Shown here: one piece after another, positions 2,944 through 11,527 of the stretch
Layout of the letters: every line of letters begins with the position of its first letter
Position numbering within the stretch: the stretch's first letter is position 1
Virus record (IMG/VR): IMGVR_UViG_3300026519_000001
Location: 1 to 64,000 of that record
Direction: 5' to 3' (one strand)
From: a virus
Length of the DNA stretch: 64,000 nucleotides
The notes under the pieces: model-generated
Told to the model about the DNA's origin: nothing
The model's input: only the letters and a program-made list of their open reading frames with translations
Databases searched by the model: none
Made by a program: the position numbers and the translations under genes

Positions 2944-2956
2944 CATTTTTTATTGT

Positions 2957-3316
2957 GCACAACGAATAGCATAAGCGTAGTGCGACTTTAGAAACGAAAT
3001 TTCAAAATAATAACAGAACTAATAATTAAAGATTATGGATAACGAAATTAAAATTGAAGCAAAAGAATTAGTGAATAAAATATACCAACCTCTTGGATCT
3101 TTAGATTGTAAAGTAAATAGTGATACAATGTGGGAATATGCACAAGGCAGAACGATTGAAATTGTGGAACATTTTATTGCGAAAATGCCAGAGGGTTCTG
3201 CAAATTGGTTGCATCATAGAAAGTTGATAGACGCTATTAATAATCTTTAATTATGGCATTTGAAACACTAAACTTGATTTTAAGCACTGTATTAAGCATT
3301 ACGCTTATGCAGTGTT
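2957..3316 (+). repeat. Hairpin site with a gene in its loop
   Basis: AAC 2961-2963; arms GCATAAGCGTAGTGC / GCATTACGCTTATGC; GTT 3314. Confidence 0.8.
3035..3250 (+). CDS. Hypothetical protein nested in a hairpin-site loop
   Basis: 71-aa ORF between the two arms. Confidence 0.65.
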   Translation: MDNEIKIEAKELVNKIYQPLGSLDCKVNSDTMWEYAQGRTIEIVEHFIAKMPEGSANWLHHRKLIDAINNL

Positions 3317-3342
3317 GTAAAATCGTTTTAATGTTTTACAAC
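3314..3342 (+). repeat. Empty cassette, copy 1
   Basis: GTTGTAAAATCGTTTTAATGTTTTACAAC, identical to 6026-6054. Confidence 0.85.
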
Positions 3343-3463
3343 GATTTGTATATGTGGTGTTGCGTGATTTAGCACCGAACTATTAAGAAATACTTAAACG
3401 TTCAAATTAAGCACGAAAATTAATAAATAAACAATAACCAAGCAATAACATATATACCGTGTT
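3340..3463 (+). repeat. Hairpin site (118-nt class)
   Basis: Arms GTATATGTGGTGTTGC / GCAATAACATATATAC. Confidence 0.75.
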
Positions 3464-3485
3464 ATATGCTTTTAAAAATAACAAA

Positions 3486-3752
3486 ATGTTAAGAAAATTA
3501 TTTAATAAAATAATACCCGTATCTGATGGAATTAAAAAATTAGGACAGCAAATGATTGACAATCCTTTAGACTGGGTTCAAGGGCAATATGAGTTTGTAA
3601 ATCGCAAAAATAGGGATGTTGCAATATGGACTTGCAATGGAATTAATTCGATTAAAATATTTGGATTTGATGGATTAACTAAAAGCGAAAAAATATATAT
3701 AAACAACTGTATAAAGATGGCAATTGCAAATAGATTAGTTCAGTCTCTATAA
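3486..3752 (+). CDS. Cassette-borne hypothetical protein (cassette 3461-3763)
   Basis: Flanked by GTTATATGC / GCATATAAC; ATG at 3486 preferred over GTG at 3459. Confidence 0.7.
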   Translation: MLRKLFNKIIPVSDGIKKLGQQMIDNPLDWVQGQYEFVNRKNRDVAIWTCNGINSIKIFGFDGLTKSEKIYINNCIKMAIANRLVQSL

Positions 3753-3760
3753 TTGCATAT

Positions 3761-3884
3761 AACGATTTTAATAAGAATAGTAGCCGAAAATGAAACGCAA
3801 AACTTATAAAATTGAACAGAATTATAAACATAGATAATAGCTTAAATAAACAGCTTAACTCGGCTATTATTTTTATTTTTTGTT
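3761..3884 (+). repeat. Hairpin site (118-nt class)
   Basis: Arms AATAAGAATAGTAGCCG / CGGCTATTATTTTTATT. Confidence 0.8.
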
Positions 3885-3898
3885 AGGCACTTTAATTT

Positions 3899-4210
3899 AT
3901 GGATAATAGAAAATGGCTCAAAAGAAAATACCCAAAAACATTTAATGAGATAAATAATTTTCTTGATAATGAAACTTTGATATTTGTTAAAAAAGGAAAA
4001 TATAAAATAGGTATGATAACAGAAGATATTATACAAGAGGATATTATATATTTAAAAGGAACTTTATGTTATTTTAAACGAAGTAATCCTATAAATAGTT
4101 ATAATTATCCGTTGCATACAATTTCTGTAAAAGATATACATAATGTAACGCTTAGTAATTATCATAATTTTTGGGTAACACCCAATAATGTAATTGAAAT
4201 TTTTGAATGA
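3899..4210 (+). CDS. Cassette-borne hypothetical protein (cassette 3882-4223)
   Basis: Flanked by GTTAGGCAC / GTGCCTAAC. Confidence 0.7.
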   Translation: MDNRKWLKRKYPKTFNEINNFLDNETLIFVKKGKYKIGMITEDIIQEDIIYLKGTLCYFKRSNPINSYNYPLHTISVKDIHNVTLSNYHNFWVTPNNVIEIFE

Positions 4211-4220
4211 TATTGTGCCT

Positions 4221-4309
4221 AACGTTGAATCTATGTGTAGTACAGCCATACATATAGTTTCATCGTTTAATAAAAATGTTAATTGGCTGTATTACATATA
4301 GATAGTGTT
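4221..4309 (+). repeat. Hairpin site (80-nt class)
   Basis: Arms ATCTATGTGTAGTACAGCCA / TGGCTGTATTACATATAGAT. Confidence 0.85.
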
Positions 4310-4325
4310 ATGTGGCGTTTTATTT

Positions 4326-4550
4326 ATGGAACAAAGAAATATTAATAATGTTATTTGGTTTTATTACGACAGTGTAATGGAATTTTTGCAAGATTTAATA
4401 GAATATGAATGCGAAATATTTAGAGATGAATATGGTCGTAGGTGGCAATATAAGAAGTACAAATTTTATTTTGCTGATATAAATGAAGAATTAACGGAAG
4501 GACTTTCGTGTTTGCACTTGTTTAAATCAGGAATTACAAATGCCACCTAA
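4326..4550 (+). CDS. Cassette-borne hypothetical protein (cassette 4307-4551)
   Basis: Flanked by GTTATGTGGCGTTT / AAATGCCACCTAAC; stop codon lies inside the AAC end. Confidence 0.7.
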   Translation: MEQRNINNVIWFYYDSVMEFLQDLIEYECEIFRDEYGRRWQYKKYKFYFADINEELTEGLSCLHLFKSGITNAT

Positions 4551-4572
4551 CAACAGGATAACAGCAATTGCG
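4546..4572 (+). repeat. 27-bp direct repeat, copy 1
   Basis: CCTAACAACAGGATAACAGCAATTGCG, identical at 11312-11338. Confidence 0.9.
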
Positions 4573-4663
4573 TATATATTATAAACGAATATTAATTTTA
4601 CTAACATTAGGTAATATTAATTATTTGTTGTTACTTTGAATTAACAAAAAAAAGAGAGCAATT

Positions 4664-4930
4664 ATGATAAATAGAACTATTGAAATTGAAGATTTAGACA
4701 AAGAGCTGTCTATTACAGTAAAAATTAACTTTTCGGGAGACTGGGAAGAACATTTTGAACATGAAGGAAAAATTGAATATCAGCCAAAATTTAATGAAAT
4801 ACTTAGGGTTGTTGATATTAGTGATAACCCGAAGCATAGTCATAGCATTTTGGAAATTGCCGATGAGCATTACGAAATTGCCAATAAATATTTAGAAAAT
4901 CACGATGTGATGGAGGAGCTAAACCACTAA
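4664..4930 (+). CDS. Hypothetical protein
   Basis: 88-aa acidic ORF. Confidence 0.65.
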   Translation: MINRTIEIEDLDKELSITVKINFSGDWEEHFEHEGKIEYQPKFNEILRVVDISDNPKHSHSILEIADEHYEIANKYLENHDVMEELNH

Positions 4931-4933
4931 ATT

Positions 4934-5155
4934 ATGAAAAATATAATAATTTTAATGATTATTGCAGCAACATTAAGCTGCTCTAAAAAAGAAGAAATTA
5001 ATTGCAAGTGTGATTTTATTTCTTATGAAAGAGAAAATAGGGACTCGGAGTAGGTTGAGAAAAGCAGAATAAGCAGAATAACAGAGTGCGGTAAGCCACC
5101 ATTCTTTATTATTAGCAACACAGAATTATCTAAAGATGTAATTTCTTGCAATTAG
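4934..5155 (+). pseudogene. Small Cys-rich lipoprotein interrupted by an in-frame TAG
   Basis: MKNIIILMIIAATLSC (lipobox) SKKEEINCKC...DSE*VEKSR...ISCN*. TAG at 5051-5053; the frame stays open to 5155 and the next ATG is at 5158. Confidence 0.55.
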
Positions 5156-5157
5156 TT

Positions 5158-5361
5158 ATGGAAAAGTCAGAAAATAAATTAAAAGAGCAACAACTTAGGG
5201 CAGAAATTAGAATTATGCTATCAAAGTATATAGACAACTCACCGTCAATATCTTTAATAGAAAATAAGATAAGAGACCTTGAGCTGCTTGTTTTTAATCG
5301 TGCTTATAAACAAGTATCACAACGATTTGTATATGATTTTGTAGGCATTACGAGCCACTAA
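5158..5361 (+). CDS. Hypothetical protein whose 3' end runs into a hairpin left arm
   Basis: ATG at 5158; AAC at 5321-5323 lies inside the ORF. Confidence 0.55.
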   Translation: MEKSENKLKEQQLRAEIRIMLSKYIDNSPSISLIENKIRDLELLVFNRAYKQVSQRFVYDFVGITSH

Positions 5362-5443
5362 TTTTTTGAATTACCTACATATTTGAAACGAGAAAATAAA
5401 TTTGAATTATTAACCAAATCGCCTATAAATTATATACTTTGTT
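5321..5443 (+). repeat. Hairpin site (118-nt class)
   Basis: Arms GTATATGATTTTGTAGGC / GCCTATAAATTATATAC. Confidence 0.75.
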
Positions 5444-5473
5444 ATATATCTGGGCGGTTTTAAAGACTAAATT

Positions 5474-5686
5474 ATGATAGAAGAGTTAGAGAAAACAACA
5501 GACTACGCTAAGAAGTACAGAGGTGTAGCACAGCAATCACTTGAAAGAAACAATTATATGAACCAAATAGAAGATGGGGAGCAAATACAGCAAAGGATTA
5601 TAGATGCTGTGCTGGTTGACTTTATAAACTACATTGGAATGATGCACGGAATTGATTATGGAATTTATACAAAAGACTTAATGTAG
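5474..5686 (+). CDS. Cassette-borne hypothetical protein (cassette 5441-5699)
   Basis: Flanked by GTTATAT / ATATAAC. Confidence 0.7.
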   Translation: MIEELEKTTDYAKKYRGVAQQSLERNNYMNQIEDGEQIQQRIIDAVLVDFINYIGMMHGIDYGIYTKDLM

Positions 5687-5696
5687 CCTTGCATAT

Positions 5697-6028
5697 AACT
5701 ATTGCTATATGAATAGTGCGGATAAAATACACGAAACTTTGAATTAAACACAAACCTAATAATTAAAATTATGTACTTAATAAAAATAAAAACTCATAAC
5801 AATCACGGATGCTGGTTAAGGTCTTTTTACGATGGCGACCCTGATAGAACATTGATAAGAGAAAGTGCTTTGAAGTTTGCAAAGAAAAAGATGGCAGAAG
5901 GTAAAGTAAAAATGCTTAACCAACTACACCCTAATAGAAGTTTTGAATTAGAGAAATTTTAATTATGACATTTGAAACACTAAACGTTAATTACAGCACG
6001 AAACCAAGCATTATTTATATAGCGTGTT
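5697..6028 (+). repeat. Hairpin site with a gene in its loop
   Basis: Arms GCTATATGAATAGTGC / GCATTATTTATATAGC. Confidence 0.8.
5771..5962 (+). CDS. Hypothetical protein nested in a hairpin-site loop
   Basis: 63-aa ORF between the arms; motif GDPDRTL. Confidence 0.65.
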   Translation: MYLIKIKTHNNHGCWLRSFYDGDPDRTLIRESALKFAKKKMAEGKVKMLNQLHPNRSFELEKF

Positions 6029-6054
6029 GTAAAATCGTTTTAATGTTTTACAAC
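6026..6054 (+). repeat. Empty cassette, copy 2
   Basis: Identical to 3314-3342. Confidence 0.85.
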
Positions 6055-6137
6055 GGTTGGTATATGTGTTGTACGCCAATCACTTAACTTAAATTTTAGT
6101 ACGACACTTAATAGGCGTATAACATATATACCTTGTT
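6052..6137 (+). repeat. Hairpin site (80-nt class)
   Basis: Arms GGTATATGTGTTGTACGCC / GGCGTATAACATATATACC. Confidence 0.85.
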
Positions 6138-6168
6138 GTGTGTAGTACGGGTAAATAAAGAAGAAATT

Positions 6169-6363
6169 ATGAAGAAATATTTTAGAAAAGACAAACCAAA
6201 TAAAGACCAAATAATTGGGTTTAAATCGAAAAAAGGATTTTATCCTGAGATTGGTGTATTCCAAACATTTGATAATGGCATTGAAGAAGTTTATATACCT
6301 GCAAATGATGATGTAGAGAAGTTATTAGAAATTGAATATTGGTTTGAAGTACCTAAAAAGTAG
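6169..6363 (+). CDS. Cassette-borne hypothetical protein (cassette 6135-6376)
   Basis: Flanked by GTTGTGTGTAGTAC / GTATTACGCACAAC. Confidence 0.7.
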   Translation: MKKYFRKDKPNKDQIIGFKSKKGFYPEIGVFQTFDNGIEEVYIPANDDVEKLLEIEYWFEVPKK

Positions 6364-6373
6364 TATTACGCAC

Positions 6374-6498
6374 AACGAGTTACTTGTATGAGTAGTAGCC
6401 GTAAATAAGCACAGAATTGAGTAGATACAAAATAAATTAATAACAAGGTAATAGTTTATAAATACAGCCTAACACGGCTATTACTTATACAAATTGTT
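6374..6498 (+). repeat. Hairpin site (118-nt class)
   Basis: Arms TTGTATGAGTAGTAGCCGT / ACGGCTATTACTTATACAA. Confidence 0.85.
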
Positions 6499-6511
6499 AG
6501 GCAACGTTATT

Positions 6512-6736
6512 ATGAGTGAAAGTAAATTAAGAATATTCGGTGGAAAAGATGATGTTAGTTTTTGGAGTGATAAGCCTATGCGAAGAGGTAATCCAAACTT
6601 TAAAGAGAAATGGTATCATATACATTGGTATAATATTCTGTATCATCCAAAACATAAATCGACTGATGGTTCTATTGTAGAAGAAATGACAAATATAAAT
6701 CTATATAAATGTAGATGTGGTAAATGTAAGCAGTAG
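6512..6736 (+). CDS. Cassette-borne small protein, possibly Zn-binding (cassette 6496-6752)
   Basis: Flanked by GTTAGGCAACGTTA / TAATGTTGCCTAAC; HIH...CRCGKC. Confidence 0.7.
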   Translation: MSESKLRIFGGKDDVSFWSDKPMRRGNPNFKEKWYHIHWYNILYHPKHKSTDGSIVEEMTNINLYKCRCGKCKQ

Positions 6737-6749
6737 GCTAATGTTGCCT

Positions 6750-6871
6750 AACGGTTTGGCTATGTGTAGTGCCGACCTTGATAAATAACTACACTAACTT
6801 AAAACACTGAAACAATGGATAAAGAACATATTAAACAAGAAGAAAACAAGGCATTACATATAGGTGTTGTT
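6750..6871 (+). repeat. Hairpin site (118-nt class) with an ORF start in its loop
   Basis: Arms CTATGTGTAGTGCC / GGCATTACATATAG. Confidence 0.8.
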
Positions 6872-7015
6872 GTGTGTGGTTCTTGCGGTAAAGACATAAA
6901 GCCCGAAGATGATAAGCATTGTTTTTGGGATGAAGATATTGAAGATGGTATAAAGCCCGAATGTTTAGATTGTCATTTGGACAGAGAATCTATTATTAGA
7001 GACTTTGGTTTTTGA
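6815..7015 (+). CDS. Junction-spanning protein with CxxC...CxxC Zn-ribbon motif
   Basis: Starts in the loop and crosses GTT 6869 in frame into cassette 6869-7027 (GTTGTGTGTGGTTC / GAATTACACACAAC). Confidence 0.65.
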   Translation: MDKEHIKQEENKALHIGVVVCGSCGKDIKPEDDKHCFWDEDIEDGIKPECLDCHLDRESIIRDFGF

Positions 7016-7024
7016 ATTACACAC

Positions 7025-7147
7025 AACGTTACCGTGTATGGTTTCGTTGCGTGTAAATAAGAAAAAACATTGATTAAACAATAAATAAAATAAATACTAA
7101 CAAGCCTTTGGAATAGCAGTTAGAAGCAATGAATTATACACATTGTT
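7025..7147 (+). repeat. Hairpin site (118-nt class)
   Basis: Arms GTGTATGGTTTCGTTGC / GCAATGAATTATACAC. Confidence 0.75.
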
Positions 7148-7196
7148 ACCTACTGTACGAGTAAAAAGGCACAAACTTTAATAAAAAACAGAAATT

Positions 7197-7589
7197 ATGG
7201 GAATGTACACGGAACTAATATTTGGTGCTGATTTAAAACAAGACACACCAAAAAACGTAATTGAAGCCTTAAAATATATGATAGGCGATACAGAAGAAAA
7301 GCCTAATGACTTTCCTTTACCTGATGGTAGATGTGAATGGTTATTTAATAGTGCTAGTTATTACTTTGGTGTAAATAGACCAGTAAATAAAATGTGGTTT
7401 GATCATATTGATAATAATTGGGTTTTAAGCACCCGAAGCAATATAAAAAACTATGAAGGCGAAATTGAGGCTTTTTTGGAATGGATAAAACCATACATTG
7501 ATGGTGGTAGTGGTTATCGTGATATGTATGCAATAGTTACTTATGAAGAAGCAGAAGTGCCAAATATTTATTACTTGCGCGAAGATTAG
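7197..7589 (+). CDS. Cassette-borne hypothetical phage protein (cassette 7145-7602)
   Basis: Flanked by GTTACCTAC / GTAGGTAAC; MGMYTEL...IKNYEGEIEAFLEWI. Confidence 0.75.
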   Translation: MGMYTELIFGADLKQDTPKNVIEALKYMIGDTEEKPNDFPLPDGRCEWLFNSASYYFGVNRPVNKMWFDHIDNNWVLSTRSNIKNYEGEIEAFLEWIKPYIDGGSGYRDMYAIVTYEEAEVPNIYYLRED

Positions 7590-7599
7590 TATTGTAGGT

Positions 7600-7684
7600 A
7601 ACGGTTTGTGTATGAAAAGTAGCCCATACACAGGCTTTCGGAATTATTACAAAACTTAATGGGCTATTTTTTATACACTTTGTT
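7600..7684 (+). repeat. Hairpin site (80-nt class)
   Basis: Arms GTGTATGAAAAGTAGCCCAT / ATGGGCTATTTTTTATACAC. Confidence 0.85.
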
Positions 7685-7730
7685 AGCGTTTCGTTTTTTG
7701 AGCGTTGGCAGATAAAATAAAGGAAATATT

Positions 7731-7937
7731 ATGAGTACAAAATTTGTAGATAGAAAAAACGATGAAGAAATAATTGACATCGTAAACAGTATTTTATCAA
7801 ATGGTAAAATGCAAGTAGAAACTATTAATGAAGCTATATTAGTCAAGTTAATGGAAATAAGGAATACTCCTATAAAATACGATAAATCGTTTAGGAATAT
7901 TGATAAAGATTTTAAGCGTTGGCAAAATGAACGCTAA
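7731..7937 (+). CDS. Cassette-borne hypothetical protein (cassette 7682-7938)
   Basis: Flanked by GTTAGCGTT / AACGCTAAC; stop codon inside the AAC end. Confidence 0.7.
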   Translation: MSTKFVDRKNDEEIIDIVNSILSNGKMQVETINEAILVKLMEIRNTPIKYDKSFRNIDKDFKRWQNER

Positions 7938-7997
7938 CACACGGCTAACCGGCATGCTTGATATTTGTGGATATACGGAACTTAAAAATTATCAAAA

Positions 7998-8087
7998 ATG
8001 AAGTTTATAATAATTGACATAGATGGAACTGTTTCAAAAATAGGAGACCGTCTTAAATGCTTTCAAGTAGAAGAAGGAGATTTTTAA
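7998..8087 (+). pseudogene. Internally deleted HAD 3'-phosphatase (PNK/PseT-like) remnant
   Basis: MKFIIIDIDGTVSKIGDRLKCFQVEEGDF: the N-terminal DxDGT motif is joined directly to the C-terminal CxQVxxGDF motif. Confidence 0.65.
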
Positions 8088-8088
8088 A

Positions 8089-8274
8089 ATGTATAAAATA
8101 TCATATAGAATCTCGTATCGACCAATAAAGCTGCCTGTTATATTTCAAGGTATAAAAGGATATGCACCTAGATTGTGGCATGTATTTTACGAACACAGAT
8201 GGATGTTATTTTCTGAATTTTATAACATTCAAAAACATGATGAAATGATTATTGGGTTATTTTTAGAAAAATAG
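8089..8274 (+). CDS. Hypothetical protein
   Basis: Short ORF packed between neighbours. Confidence 0.5.
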   Translation: MYKISYRISYRPIKLPVIFQGIKGYAPRLWHVFYEHRWMLFSEFYNIQKHDEMIIGLFLEK

Positions 8275-8276
8275 GA

Positions 8277-8612
8277 ATGAACAAAATACCAACCATATTA
8301 CAAGATTACTTTCTTCTAACTTTAGATAAAAGGTTTGAGTCTAAGTCAAAGTCTGGATTAATGACGGTTAATGAATCATACATAGCCGGAACAGCAGAAG
8401 AAGAGGAAGGGTGGGAAAAGAACCTCCACAAAAGAATTTATGGAACTGTAATATCTTGCCCAAAGTCATTTAGTGATGACCCTATATTTGCAATAGACCC
8501 CGGTAGCCCAACCCCTAAAAGATATATAAGTGCCGAAGAAATAGAAAATAAGGTAAAGATTGGGATGAGAAATTACTCAAGGACAGATTACTCGCCAACG
8601 CCTTTAATTTAG
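8277..8612 (+). CDS. Possible GroES-like protein, probably truncated
   Basis: KSKSGLM...GTVISCP resembles GroES-fold motifs; weak. Confidence 0.35.
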   Translation: MNKIPTILQDYFLLTLDKRFESKSKSGLMTVNESYIAGTAEEEEGWEKNLHKRIYGTVISCPKSFSDDPIFAIDPGSPTPKRYISAEEIENKVKIGMRNYSRTDYSPTPLI

Positions 8613-8635
8613 ATAAATTTATTACAAAAGAAAGG

Positions 8636-9004
8636 TTGGAAAAGAGCAAAACAGGAAATGTAATAGGGCAACTCTCTAAATGGATGCAAGAAGACGGAAT
8701 GCCTTACTACATTGATACACTTTACTATAATCACTTAGGTAAAAAGTTGCCTGCATCTGCTTTAGGATATACGCCAAATGGCGAAGGTATAAACTTTCTT
8801 CCAATCTTGTTAAATGTTAGATACTCTGATAAAGGCAAAAACCATTTAGTTGGTGGTAAAATAAGCAAAAACGGTGTTTTGTACTTATACGATAGTTTAA
8901 AAGAAGAAATGATTGAAACTACACTCGCAAAAGCAAATAGAATGTACCATAATGTATATGGCTTGTTTATGTCTGTTGAAACTGGCGACTATATTTTTAT
9001 ATAA
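8636..9004 (+). CDS. Hypothetical protein or gene fragment
   Basis: ORF with TTG start, ending just before a short hairpin site at 9028-9071. Confidence 0.45.
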   Translation: MEKSKTGNVIGQLSKWMQEDGMPYYIDTLYYNHLGKKLPASALGYTPNGEGINFLPILLNVRYSDKGKNHLVGGKISKNGVLYLYDSLKEEMIETTLAKANRMYHNVYGLFMSVETGDYIFI

Positions 9005-9027
9005 GCACAAGGTTAGTACTTGTAGTT

Positions 9028-9071
9028 AACGAGATAGGCTAAACGGTTGTTTTAATGCCGTTTTAGCCATT
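9028..9071 (+). repeat. Minimal or degenerate hairpin site
   Basis: AAC, GGCTAAACGG, TTGTTTTAATG, CCGTTTTAGCC; no intact downstream GTT. Confidence 0.5.
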
Positions 9072-9132
9072 TTGCTTGTATATATCGTATATATCATATA
9101 CCTTAGTAATATCAAATTAAAACATTAAGAAA

Positions 9133-9306
9133 ATGACAAACTCAGAATTAAGAATCGAAATAGCAAAGTTAGAAGAACAAAAAATAAACTTTTGCGATAA
9201 CAATTTGTTATTTAACCAATTTACTGCACTGATTAATGAAATTAAAATAGAAATACATAAAGATAGTAAAGTTGCACTAAAAGCACTTGGATTTGGAGAA
9301 AGATAA
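9133..9306 (+). CDS. Hypothetical 57-aa protein (not in the ORF track)
   Basis: MTNSELRIEIAKLEEQK...KALGFGER*; more plausible than the antisense ORF 9117-9341. Confidence 0.55.
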   Translation: MTNSELRIEIAKLEEQKINFCDNNLLFNQFTALINEIKIEIHKDSKVALKALGFGER

Positions 9307-9439
9307 TTGACATACCAGAAGATATTAAGAAACAATTGCAAATACTTGCTATTAAAGCGGATAAGGATTTAAAGAACTATATACAAGACTTACTAATTAG
9401 CCATATAGCATATAGCGTGGGCAAAAAATAGTTACATAT

Positions 9440-9560
9440 AACGGTTTTAATAAGAATAGTAGCGTGTAATTATGCGGAAACTATCAGATTGAAATAATTA
9501 ATTAACAGGTAATAGCCACTAAAAAGACACCTTAACAGGCTATTATTTTTATACATTGTT
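9440..9560 (+). repeat. Hairpin site (118-nt class)
   Basis: Left arm TTTTAATAAGAATAGTAGC, same as site 3763; right arm GCTATTATTTTTAT. Confidence 0.75.
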
Positions 9561-9577
9561 AGGGTGCGTTACTTAAA

Positions 9578-9832
9578 ATGAACAACCCAATTAAAGATAA
9601 CAGAATTGTAAAAGACAAAACTTTCGCTTTAAGGCTTTTAAGTTTTGCGTTAGAAACCAACTGTGTTGATGCTTCTAGTGAAGATGAAAAAGAATCTATG
9701 ATAAGTTACTCTACAAGTTTACTTAAATACCAAATAGAAACTGCAACCGAAATACACGAAACGGCTTATTTAGAAAGGTGTAATGCAAAAGCAAGACTTA
9801 AAAAAGGATTAAAGTTTTTAGGTAAAGCCTAA
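9578..9832 (+). CDS. Cassette-borne hypothetical protein (cassette 9558-9843)
   Basis: Flanked by GTTAGGGTGCGTTA / TAATGCACCCTAAC. Confidence 0.7.
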   Translation: MNNPIKDNRIVKDKTFALRLLSFALETNCVDASSEDEKESMISYSTSLLKYQIETATEIHETAYLERCNAKARLKKGLKFLGKA

Positions 9833-9957
9833 TGCACCCTAACGATGCCTCACTTTGCTATATTTATTGTTAGGCATCTTTTAAAATTACGGCATTATGG
9901 GATATAATCTAATAAGTGGTTGTCATAAATGTGAAAAGCAAATATTTCACTTTAGAA

Positions 9958-10194
9958 ATGAAGAAAATAACACATAATTTAGGAGAGAAATTGCAATGGT
10001 TTTTATACTTTGTTATATGCCGTTTTGGTTTTCATAAATGGGGAATGACCAAATGGTGCAGATTTAAAGATAAAAAATGTAAGTATTTAGTTGAAGAAGG
10101 TTTTGACAGAGATTGCGAACATCCATTTAATTATGTTGTGATTGGTAATGATACAATACTAAATAAATGCACAAAATGTGGTAAAGAATTTTAG
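9958..10194 (+). CDS. Junction-spanning Cys/His-rich protein
   Basis: MKKITHNLGEKLQWFLYFV|ICRFGFHKW...CTKCGK; crosses GTT 10012 in frame. Confidence 0.6.
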   Translation: MKKITHNLGEKLQWFLYFVICRFGFHKWGMTKWCRFKDKKCKYLVEEGFDRDCEHPFNYVVIGNDTILNKCTKCGKEF

Positions 10195-10209
10195 CAATTT
10201 ATGTTTGCT

Positions 10210-10397
10210 AACGGTTTGTGCAAGGTTAGTGCGGAATTAATAACAGAACTTAATAAATATAAACTATGGTAAATATAAACACTATTGAAGGAATTGAAAA
10301 CCTTATAGATAAAAGAACAAAACCTTTAAAAGAGGAAATACTTAAACTACGATTTGAATTAGAAGAACTGAAACAAGCATTAACTATACAGATTGTT
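10210..10397 (+). repeat. Hairpin site with an ORF in its loop
   Basis: Arms TGTGCAAGGTTAGTGC / GCATTAACTATACA. Confidence 0.65.
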
Positions 10398-10415
10398 AGC
10401 ATTTCGGTTTTCTAA
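10266..10415 (+). CDS. Junction-spanning 49-aa coiled-coil peptide (not in the ORF track)
   Basis: MVNINTIEG...ELKQALTIQIVSISVF*; crosses GTT 10395 in frame. Confidence 0.55.
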   Translation: MVNINTIEGIENLIDKRTKPLKEEILKLRFELEELKQALTIQIVSISVF

Positions 10416-10431
10416 CAAAACTAAAATTATT

Positions 10432-10719
10432 ATGAAACAAATTATTGAATGGTCAAAAGGAAACCCTGGAGCAATGAACTTTATGATGGAGTTTTTTAAA
10501 CCAGAAAACGCAGTATTAGGAATTGGAATACTATCGAAATTGGAAGAATTGAAAACTATTAGAGGAACTAATCTTTATGTGCTTTACTCTGATTTATGTG
10601 GTAAGGATTTAAAGGCAGTTGAAACTCTTTGTAAAAATTGCCCGTCTGAAATATTAGAAGATGCTTGTTCAAGACAAGACTACTCTGGTAGAGAGTTGGT
10701 AAAGGAGTACCTTACATAG
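10432..10719 (+). CDS. Hypothetical phage protein
   Basis: MKQIIEWSKGNPGAM...GTNLYVLYSDLC. Confidence 0.7.
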   Translation: MKQIIEWSKGNPGAMNFMMEFFKPENAVLGIGILSKLEELKTIRGTNLYVLYSDLCGKDLKAVETLCKNCPSEILEDACSRQDYSGRELVKEYLT

Positions 10720-10846
10720 TGATAGATGATAGTGAAATAATTAATACAAGAGAAATGGCAGAAGCATTAGAACACGCAATGTTTATTAGTTTTTGTTTTA
10801 ATAACCCTGATAGAATAGACTTACGTTAGTAATTTTTATCGTGGGT

Positions 10847-10905
10847 AATGAATGGTTGTATTGTGTCGTATTTGCTTTTCGCAAATATGCAATATATACT
10901 TTGTT
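10847..10905 (+). repeat. Short hairpin site with AAT in place of AAC
   Basis: Arms GTATTGTGTCGTATTTGC / GCAAATATGCAATATATAC; GTT 10903. Confidence 0.6.
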
Positions 10906-10953
10906 AGGCTTATGTACGGTAAATGATAAACTAAATTATAAAAACAGAATAAA

Positions 10954-11304
10954 ATGGAAAAATTTAAGATTGAAATTGACAGAAGAGAAATAGTTGAAAC
11001 TATTAACAAAGGTATTCACGATAAAATTAGAGAGCAAATGAACGCTCAATCTAAGCAAATTGAAGCATCTATTGCTGATCACTTTAAAAGATCGTTTTTC
11101 AATGAAAAGAAAAATGAATTTGAATCTGCTTTGGATTATACTATTGAAACTTCATTTAGAGATGGATTGGAATTAGCAATGAAAGAAATGAAGTTCAAAG
11201 AACTAATTGCAGAAAAAGCAAAAGAATTATTAAGTGATGACAATTTGATACAGGAACTTGCAGAAGCAAAAGTTAGAAGTTCTTTAGGTTTACCGCTAAA
11301 GTAG
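10954..11304 (+). CDS. Cassette-borne helical protein (cassette 10903-11317)
   Basis: Flanked by GTTAGGCTTA / TAAGCCTAAC. Confidence 0.7.
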   Translation: MEKFKIEIDRREIVETINKGIHDKIREQMNAQSKQIEASIADHFKRSFFNEKKNEFESALDYTIETSFRDGLELAMKEMKFKELIAEKAKELLSDDNLIQELAEAKVRSSLGLPLK

Positions 11305-11311
11305 TATTAAG

Positions 11312-11338
11312 CCTAACAACAGGATAACAGCAATTGCG
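11312..11338 (+). repeat. 27-bp direct repeat, copy 2
   Basis: Identical to 4546-4572. Confidence 0.9.
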
Positions 11339-11527
11339 GTATTAGACAAGACTAGTTTGATTAAAACCGCTAATGGTGAATAATGAAAAGTATAATATGA
11401 TAATCCATACTTAAAATTTTGCTATAAGAATTGAACTTAGATGGCTTTTTACTTTATACAATGTTACCCATCTTTTAAAAGTACAAAAATTTGAAATTGT
11501 TAGAATATTAAAAAATAAAATTAAAAA

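Follow-up and report, generated by a model that had tools for sequence, protein, structure and literature searches.

How is a small gene expressed when the piece of DNA that carries it has no start codon of its own, and can the site in front of it lend one? This question is raised by an array of small genes (positions 2955–11475, + strand) in IMG/VR virus record IMGVR_UViG_3300026519_000001, a complete 94,261-bp genome with direct terminal repeats, which is that of a marine crAss-like phage. The stretch analysed, called the window hereafter, comprises its bases 1–64000. The array is integron-like in that cargo pieces, which run from GTT to AAC and are each bounded by a terminal inverted repeat of their own, alternate with hairpin sites of the form AAC|G...T|GTT, and three open reading frames (ORFs) start within such sites and read on into the cargo behind. 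We consider it probable that some of these hairpins are leader sites, giving a start codon and a front part to cargo that has no start, and that the AAC and GTT cores are the points where sites and cargo reassort. The argument is carried by the anatomy of the array, the covariation within its hairpins, the frame statistics of a larger set of sites, the module breakpoints and the reassortment of N-terminal and C-terminal parts.

Anatomy of the three through-ORFs

A first-pass annotation had picked out three ORFs that cross a core with GTT read as an in-frame valine codon, and all three are found where it placed them. All are ATG-led and start inside attC-like hairpin sites. ORF1 (6815–7015, + strand, 66 amino acids) has its GTT at 6869–6871 as codon 19, and consists of an 18-codon leader, contributed by site H, and a start-less cargo with a CxxC...CxxC module. 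ORF2 (9958–10194, + strand, 78 amino acids) likewise has GTT (10012–10014) as codon 19, with an 18-codon leader ending in LQWFLYF|V and a Cys/His-rich cargo. In ORF3 (10266–10415, + strand, 49 amino acids) 43 codons precede the GTT at 10395–10397, which is codon 44.

Leader site H (6744–6871, + strand) is composed of a left AAC (6750–6752), a loop with the ATG at 6815, a right arm (6850–6868) and the GTT, its arms pair with G.T wobbles, and it scores 90 bits with the covariation model R1 described below. The right arm is read as KALHIGV, as annotated, but the correct junction peptide is KALHIGV|VVCGSC, with one valine more than had been given. The ORF1 cargo piece (6869–7027, + strand) is bounded by a terminal inverted repeat of 9–10 nt (GTTGTGTGT...ACACACAAC). 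It had been described as start-less; there is indeed no in-frame ATG within it, and all 12 of its homologues start upstream of the junction, but an in-frame GTG is present at 6872. The ORF2 leader lies in the degenerate leader site N (9889–10014, + strand), in which the right arm (9993–10011) and GTT are intact, the left AAC core is lost and the R1 score is only 17.8 bits. The long-loop site O (10204–10397, + strand) has a left AAC at 10210–10212, a loop gene starting at 10266 and a right arm at 10377–10394, and 12 of 14 arm positions pair by hand count. Here ORF3 comprises a coiled-coil-like front of 41 codons, the junction and a tail of six codons, and its stop (10413–10415) lies 16 nt before the ATG of a self-starting cargo gene (10432–10719, + strand) that is in frame 2 relative to GTT. 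The ORF3 of the window represents the unfused state.

There are 16 right arms in the window; a long ATG-led crossing is seen at these three only, and mini-ORFs of up to 19 codons cross in other frames. Three frame-0 crossings out of 16 are not significant for the window by itself, and the significance of the junction frame comes from a larger set of sites.

Leaders and junction frame in a larger set of sites

We scored 91 R1 sites from 34 phage contigs outside the window, counting as a leader any in-site ATG at least eight codons upstream in frame 0. Such a leader was present in 35 of the 91 sites. The frame remained open for at least 20 codons past GTT in 28 of these 35 (median 51), compared with 6 of the 56 leaderless sites (Fisher p=2e-11), and the cargo after leader sites has no in-frame start near the junction. 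The fixed junction frame that had been proposed is thus the main one but not the sole one: among 39 through-ORFs, 28 use frame 0, a second class of 10 uses frame 2 and a single one uses frame 1 (frame 0 versus frame 2, binomial p=0.005). Frame 1 is closed because of the TAG in GTTAG cores.

Fronts and backs recur in different combinations

The first-pass annotation had suggested looking for one N-terminal part joined to different C-terminal parts with the break at the Val codon, and the front of ORF3 is such a case. Its first 41 residues are common to 17 protein clusters at 80–90% identity, and beyond two variable residues and the Val these metagenome protein clusters have at least 12 unrelated tails of 27–41 residues. 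Of these tails, 11 have the Cys patterns expected of zinc ribbons and one is a hydrophobic helix. In three clusters, including that of the window, the protein ends within two to six codons of the junction. Divergence sets in at the Val codon in the protein and at GTT in the DNA. The 41 codons have a ratio of non-synonymous to synonymous polymorphism (pN/pS) of 0.11–0.50, i.e. they are under purifying selection, and the ORF3 front is therefore real coding sequence. Comparison of the window with three metagenome loci (L002, L003 and L004) gave DNA homology from the left arm, just after AAC, to GTT, with both flanks unrelated. In the tail of L002, ATG, GTG and TTG are all missing in frame ahead of the first Cys, so that this tail can be made only as a fusion.

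The homologues of ORF1 and ORF2 were compared as proteins, and the arguments concerning them rest on protein alignments and on other loci. Among the 12 ORF1 homologues the zinc-ribbon part is 72–100% identical and residues 1–18 are far more divergent, to the extent that leaders only 29–44% identical stand before cargo that is 85–100% identical, with pairs among them whose cargo is 94–100% and whose leaders are 29–39% identical. The leader is 15–18 residues long in 10 of the 12, with differences in length by in-frame indels only and no stops, and in the other two the protein starts merely one to three codons ahead of the junction Val. The swapping of leaders that had been anticipated is borne out in this family: the ORF1 back part stands behind several leader types, and two of these types recur before unrelated cargo in other phage contigs, with leader and cargo identities of 81 and 23% respectively for L061:880 against P0008, and of 82 and 26% for L038:11355 against P0014. 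Across the larger set, leaders common at 72–88% identity are found before unrelated cargo in other phage contigs. The ORF2 leader with its right arm is homologous to a well-scoring site at L038:10958–11090 and to L085:5736–5871; the similarity stops after GTTA, and the cargo behind this leader in both loci differs from that of ORF2. An AlphaFold prediction for ORF1 (13 sequences) was of low confidence, with a predicted local distance difference test score (pLDDT) of 54 and the leader predicted to be disordered.

When four leader-sharing site pairs were aligned together with their flanks, homology extended from AACGG to GTT(AG) only, and in five independent DNA comparisons it was confined to AAC...GTT, although the metagenome contigs could include chimeras. 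In addition, the window cargo at 6169–6363 has a homologue in L003 that precedes a different site. In an integron the attC belongs to, and moves with, the upstream ORF, whereas the sequence upstream of these shared sites is unrelated. The confined homology and the L003 case together indicate that sites and cargo are separate modules and that a site is not owned by the ORF preceding it.

A full-library search with one fused protein, P0023, gave 51 small proteins, in which one C-terminal family is preceded by six or more unrelated fronts, and several fronts are combined with many backs each. Approximately 30 of the 51 contain the linker (A)LRIHDVVG(R/Q)SEQL, and its VVG(R/Q)SEQL part is encoded by a conserved GC-rich unit of 24 nt that immediately follows GTT in sites predicted by the model and occurs nine times in seven loci (L002:1479–1502, L039:7590, L073 on the minus strand at reverse-complement coordinates 2805 and 3505, L079, L096, L099 and L111). 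This unit, GTTGTA(GGG/TTG/AAG)CARAGCGAACAGTTA, ends in AAC-A-GTT, so that its second GTT is in frame 2 and the junction is moved from frame 0. It looks constrained as nucleic acid because its codons are rare for these AT-rich phages, and it is absent from the genome of the window. Two frame-2 through-ORFs (L024:2851, and L050 on the minus strand, reverse-complement coordinate 1063) are of signal-peptide type, the site giving the charged N-region and the arm and cargo giving the hydrophobic core, and one of the pair has a lipobox-like LSSC.

Scans of viral contigs with single proteins of all three ORFs, and also with alignments A3 and A1, gave no relatives, and none of the three had a tblastn match among GenBank phages; a scan of genome contigs returned one truncated locus only, which ends short of the junction.

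Folding and covariation of the hairpin sites

Each stretch from AAC to the next GTT is an imperfect hairpin of 26–182 nt, and all sites in the window lie in direct orientation on the + strand. Ten window sites were aligned; of the 17 pairs predicted, 9 are supported by compensatory changes. The covariation model R1, built from this alignment, matched other IMG/VR contigs 115 times at E<=0.1. In the 75 best outside sites, for which the alignment (A7) is one fitted to the model, 92.9% of pair cells are standard-paired compared with 73% in shuffles, with 251 double-change cells. Leader sites fold equally well, with 91% of cells paired compared with 94% in the remaining sites. An imperfect inverted repeat, AAC and GTT cores and a hairpin fold, as in attC, are therefore all present, and site F shows an asymmetric bulge. 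Minimum-free-energy folding of sites H and O by themselves did not recover the hairpin because their loops are long. The conserved G.T pairs sit on the coding (top) strand, both in the window and in the outside sites. No matching Rfam family was found, and a scan for sigma-70-like promoters and terminators showed no enrichment, although promoters of the crAss-like virion RNA polymerase, which have no known motif (bioRxiv 10.1101/2020.03.07.982082), could escape such a scan.

Proposed mechanism and alternatives

We propose that a leader site is one of a subset of sites in which the loop holds either an ATG with 16–21 codons or a helical domain of 40–60 codons, and that the leader frame would continue through the right arm and GTT (Val) into the next cargo piece. 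As this class of cargo has no start codon of its own, the site would encode the front of the protein and the cargo its back, and as the junction frame is common, mainly with GTT as a codon, a leader site could express any start-less cargo of that frame class. From one phage genome to another, sites and cargo would be combined independently, the breakpoints falling on the AAC and GTT cores. ORF1 would then be a short leader with a zinc-ribbon cargo and ORF2 a similar design on a decayed site, and the long-loop front of ORF3 would meet a self-starting cargo and stop after six codons, which could couple translation to the next gene. The short leaders (16–21 amino acids) look poorly constrained, as if they supplied a start and a tag and not a domain. 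That each cargo has terminal repeats of its own speaks for an exchange like that of integrons, dependent on structure. Of the reshuffling of leaders and C-terminal domains originally put forward, the breakpoints and the reassortment are observed, but that exchange is site-specific at the cores, with the crossover at GTT, we infer from those breakpoints.

Several observations weigh against this proposal. No tyrosine recombinase was detected in the whole 94,261-bp genome by PF00589 or TIGR02249 at E<=10, nor, in the same search, an integron-type recombinase (IntI) adjoining the array. The five ORF2 homologues keep a single pairing, in which the leader and the first nine codons past Val stay together; one of the five diverges after that, and the copy in the window carries an internal deletion and ends differently. 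In this family the Val is not a breakpoint. The differences among short leaders are mostly non-synonymous, and their sequence may therefore be unimportant. Some cargo after the ORF3 front (L002 and L003) has no matching terminal inverted repeat, and the strong association of leader sites with start-less cargo may indicate that the two usually travel as a unit instead of moving freely. The GTG at 6872 could start a leaderless protein, and initiation at the loop ATGs is something we infer. Top-strand G.T pairs suit an RNA or a top-strand fold better than the classical bottom-strand fold of attC, and the presence of breakpoints at both ends of the sites looks as if the conserved arms were patches of homology.

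A different reading, which we regard as a real though lesser possibility, gives the hairpins a regulatory role in the transcript or in single-stranded DNA (for processing, stability or translation control at the 5′ ends of genes), comparable to that of the promoter–stem-loop cassettes (PeSLs) of T4-type phages; the mosaic would then arise by ordinary homologous recombination between conserved arms, and read-through would be a tolerated by-product. The conservation of G.U/G.T wobbles on the sense strand, the breakpoints at both ends of the sites, the poor conservation of short leaders and the want of a recombinase in this phage all agree with it, and shuffling mediated by PeSLs has been documented (PMC2839356, PMC4122927). 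However, the 9–13-nt terminal inverted repeats of the cargo are explained by integron-type exchange and not by homologous recombination, homology ends within a few bases of GTT in all comparisons, and start-less cargo depends on its leader, so that read-through is needed for expression; the promoter and Rfam results give this reading no help either. Somewhat more doubtful, in our judgement, is a form of DNA-level exon shuffling in which the hairpins are in-frame joints for any front and any frame-matched start-less cargo, exchanged by a non-tyrosine recombinase or by phage replication machinery acting on hairpins. This form would include frame adapters: the 24-nt unit GTTGTAGGGCARAGCGAACAGTTA, read as VVG(R/Q)SEQL, would carry a frame-0 leader onto the second GTT in frame 2.

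The crossings might instead be chance open frames in AT-rich DNA, or extensions by gene callers, with the true starts at or after the junction, for example at GTG 6872, which is in frame. The small number of crossings in the window, the use of other frames by short chance ORFs and the two ORF1 homologues that begin close to the junction would all fit, but the association of leaders with open frames over 91 independent sites, the L002-type cargo in which no start codon precedes the first Cys, the purifying selection on the ORF3 front and the strictly in-frame indels of the leaders make this very unlikely. We give even less credence to the view that the through-ORFs are ordinary genes inherited whole, with a fast-evolving disordered tail at the N-terminus and no reshuffling at the junction. 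It would account for the one pairing held by the ORF2 family and for the similar length and composition of ORF1-family leaders, and the low-confidence prediction of a disordered leader is consistent with it. It is already contradicted, unless the contigs are chimeric assemblies, by near-identical leaders before unrelated cargo and near-identical cargo behind unrelated leaders, by the number of unrelated tails on the ORF3 front and by the unrelated flanking DNA on both sides of shared sites.

Comparison with known systems

Integron cassettes are usually viewed as complete genes, with a recombination site that is non-coding. In the leader-site arrangement proposed here the site is part of the protein, giving it a start codon and an N-terminal piece, and because the junction frame is common, fronts and backs can be exchanged. 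Should this be confirmed, lytic phages of Bacteroidota would possess a natural system that builds small proteins combinatorially; the survival of start-less cassettes would be accounted for, and a handle on the origin of new cassettes would be gained. Gene callers and integron finders will misjudge genes and sites in such arrays. We found no paper on hairpin sites encoding gene starts that are fused in frame to interchangeable cargo.

The closest counterparts differ in several respects. Clusters of attC sites lacking integron integrases (CALINs) have been published in virulent phages (PMC9892861), and the present array resembles integron arrays and CALINs in its small, mostly unknown ORFs between imperfect AAC...GTT hairpins, the complementarity of its cargo ends and its occurrence in a phage without an integrase; the spacing of the clustered sites and the absence of intI agree with a CALIN, for which the array is a candidate. 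Unlike in those systems, sites here assort independently of the upstream ORF, both cores are breakpoints, the wobbles lie on the coding strand and a third of the sites have a start codon and a leader that would be read through the site. Class 1 integrons (PMC8876359) offer another parallel in the ORF-11, ORF-17 and ORF-18 of attI1 and in the short attC ORFs, which are encoded by the site, lie over the crossover, take their continuation or stop from the cassette and aid cassettes without translation signals. ORF-11 acts by translational coupling and normally ends at the core TAG, whereas here the frame stays open to give fusion proteins, and it belongs to a single attI, whereas the attC-like sites occur all along the array. 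A stop taken from the cassette near the cassette's own start is seen in ORF3 only; ORF1 and ORF2 are true fusions. Fused gene cassettes of class 1 integrons similarly join two cassette-borne frames into one protein or translational unit, but these are rare accidents through loss of attC (PMC4670013, PMC8876359), whereas here the intact hairpin is retained and would itself be part of the reading frame.

Shufflons and invertible tail-fibre segments (Rci/sfx; PMC5430464) also join a constant N-terminal part in frame to alternative C-terminal parts at an intragenic recombination site. Theirs is an inversion that takes place inside a single genome, concerns one target gene and is served by an adjacent recombinase; here the modules are in direct orientation, there is no recombinase and the variation is between genomes and concerns many genes, so neither the adjacent recombinase nor the inverted sites of a shufflon are present. 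In the PeSL cassettes of T4-type phages (PMC2839356, PMC4122927), conserved stem-loop modules flank small ORFs in hyperplastic regions and mediate shuffling. PeSLs are promoter–terminator motifs outside coding sequence, for which start codons, leaders and cargo-specific terminal repeats are not reported.

Other features of the array and its surroundings

The genome has approximately 28% GC and very large ORFs on the minus strand. Megablast of the array gave matches limited to two short patches in Cellulophaga phages, and no cassette protein had a significant match to a Pfam family. Every small array ORF is flanked by a piece-specific inverted repeat, GTT-led on one side and AAC-ended on the other, of 9–13 nt and abutting the AAC and GTT cores. 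Ten pairs are clear (+ strand): 3461/3763, 3882/4223, 4307/4551, 6135/6376, 6496/6752, 6869/7027, 7145/7602, 7682/7938, 9558/9843 and 10903/11317.

Two identical gene-less GTT...AAC units of 29 bp ('empty cassettes'), with perfect 9-nt terminal inverted repeats, lie at 3314–3342 and 6026–6054, and the ORF3-type fusion tail in L003 opens with the first 14 nt of this unit. A Dam-type N6-adenine methyltransferase gene (2515–2943; Pfam PF05869, E=2.6e-20) ends at the array's first left arm (2958–2964). After the left arm at 7930–7938 the region 7999–9004 has no right arm, and its ORFs are short and apparently truncated, for example a 29-residue start resembling a haloacid dehalogenase (HAD) phosphatase at 7999–8088; the array seems to have decayed here.

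Contigs of sample X1, a hydrothermal vent metagenome which is probably the source sample and therefore not independent, contain a variant located away from the three junctions. In one low-depth contig, 238 other letters stand between 5768 and 5957, so that the loop-borne gene at 5771–5962 is replaced in a co-occurring variant. The contig graph of X1 breaks on arms at 3319–3341, 4219–4312, 5435–5450 and 6026, and one variant contig ends at 10160, within ORF2.

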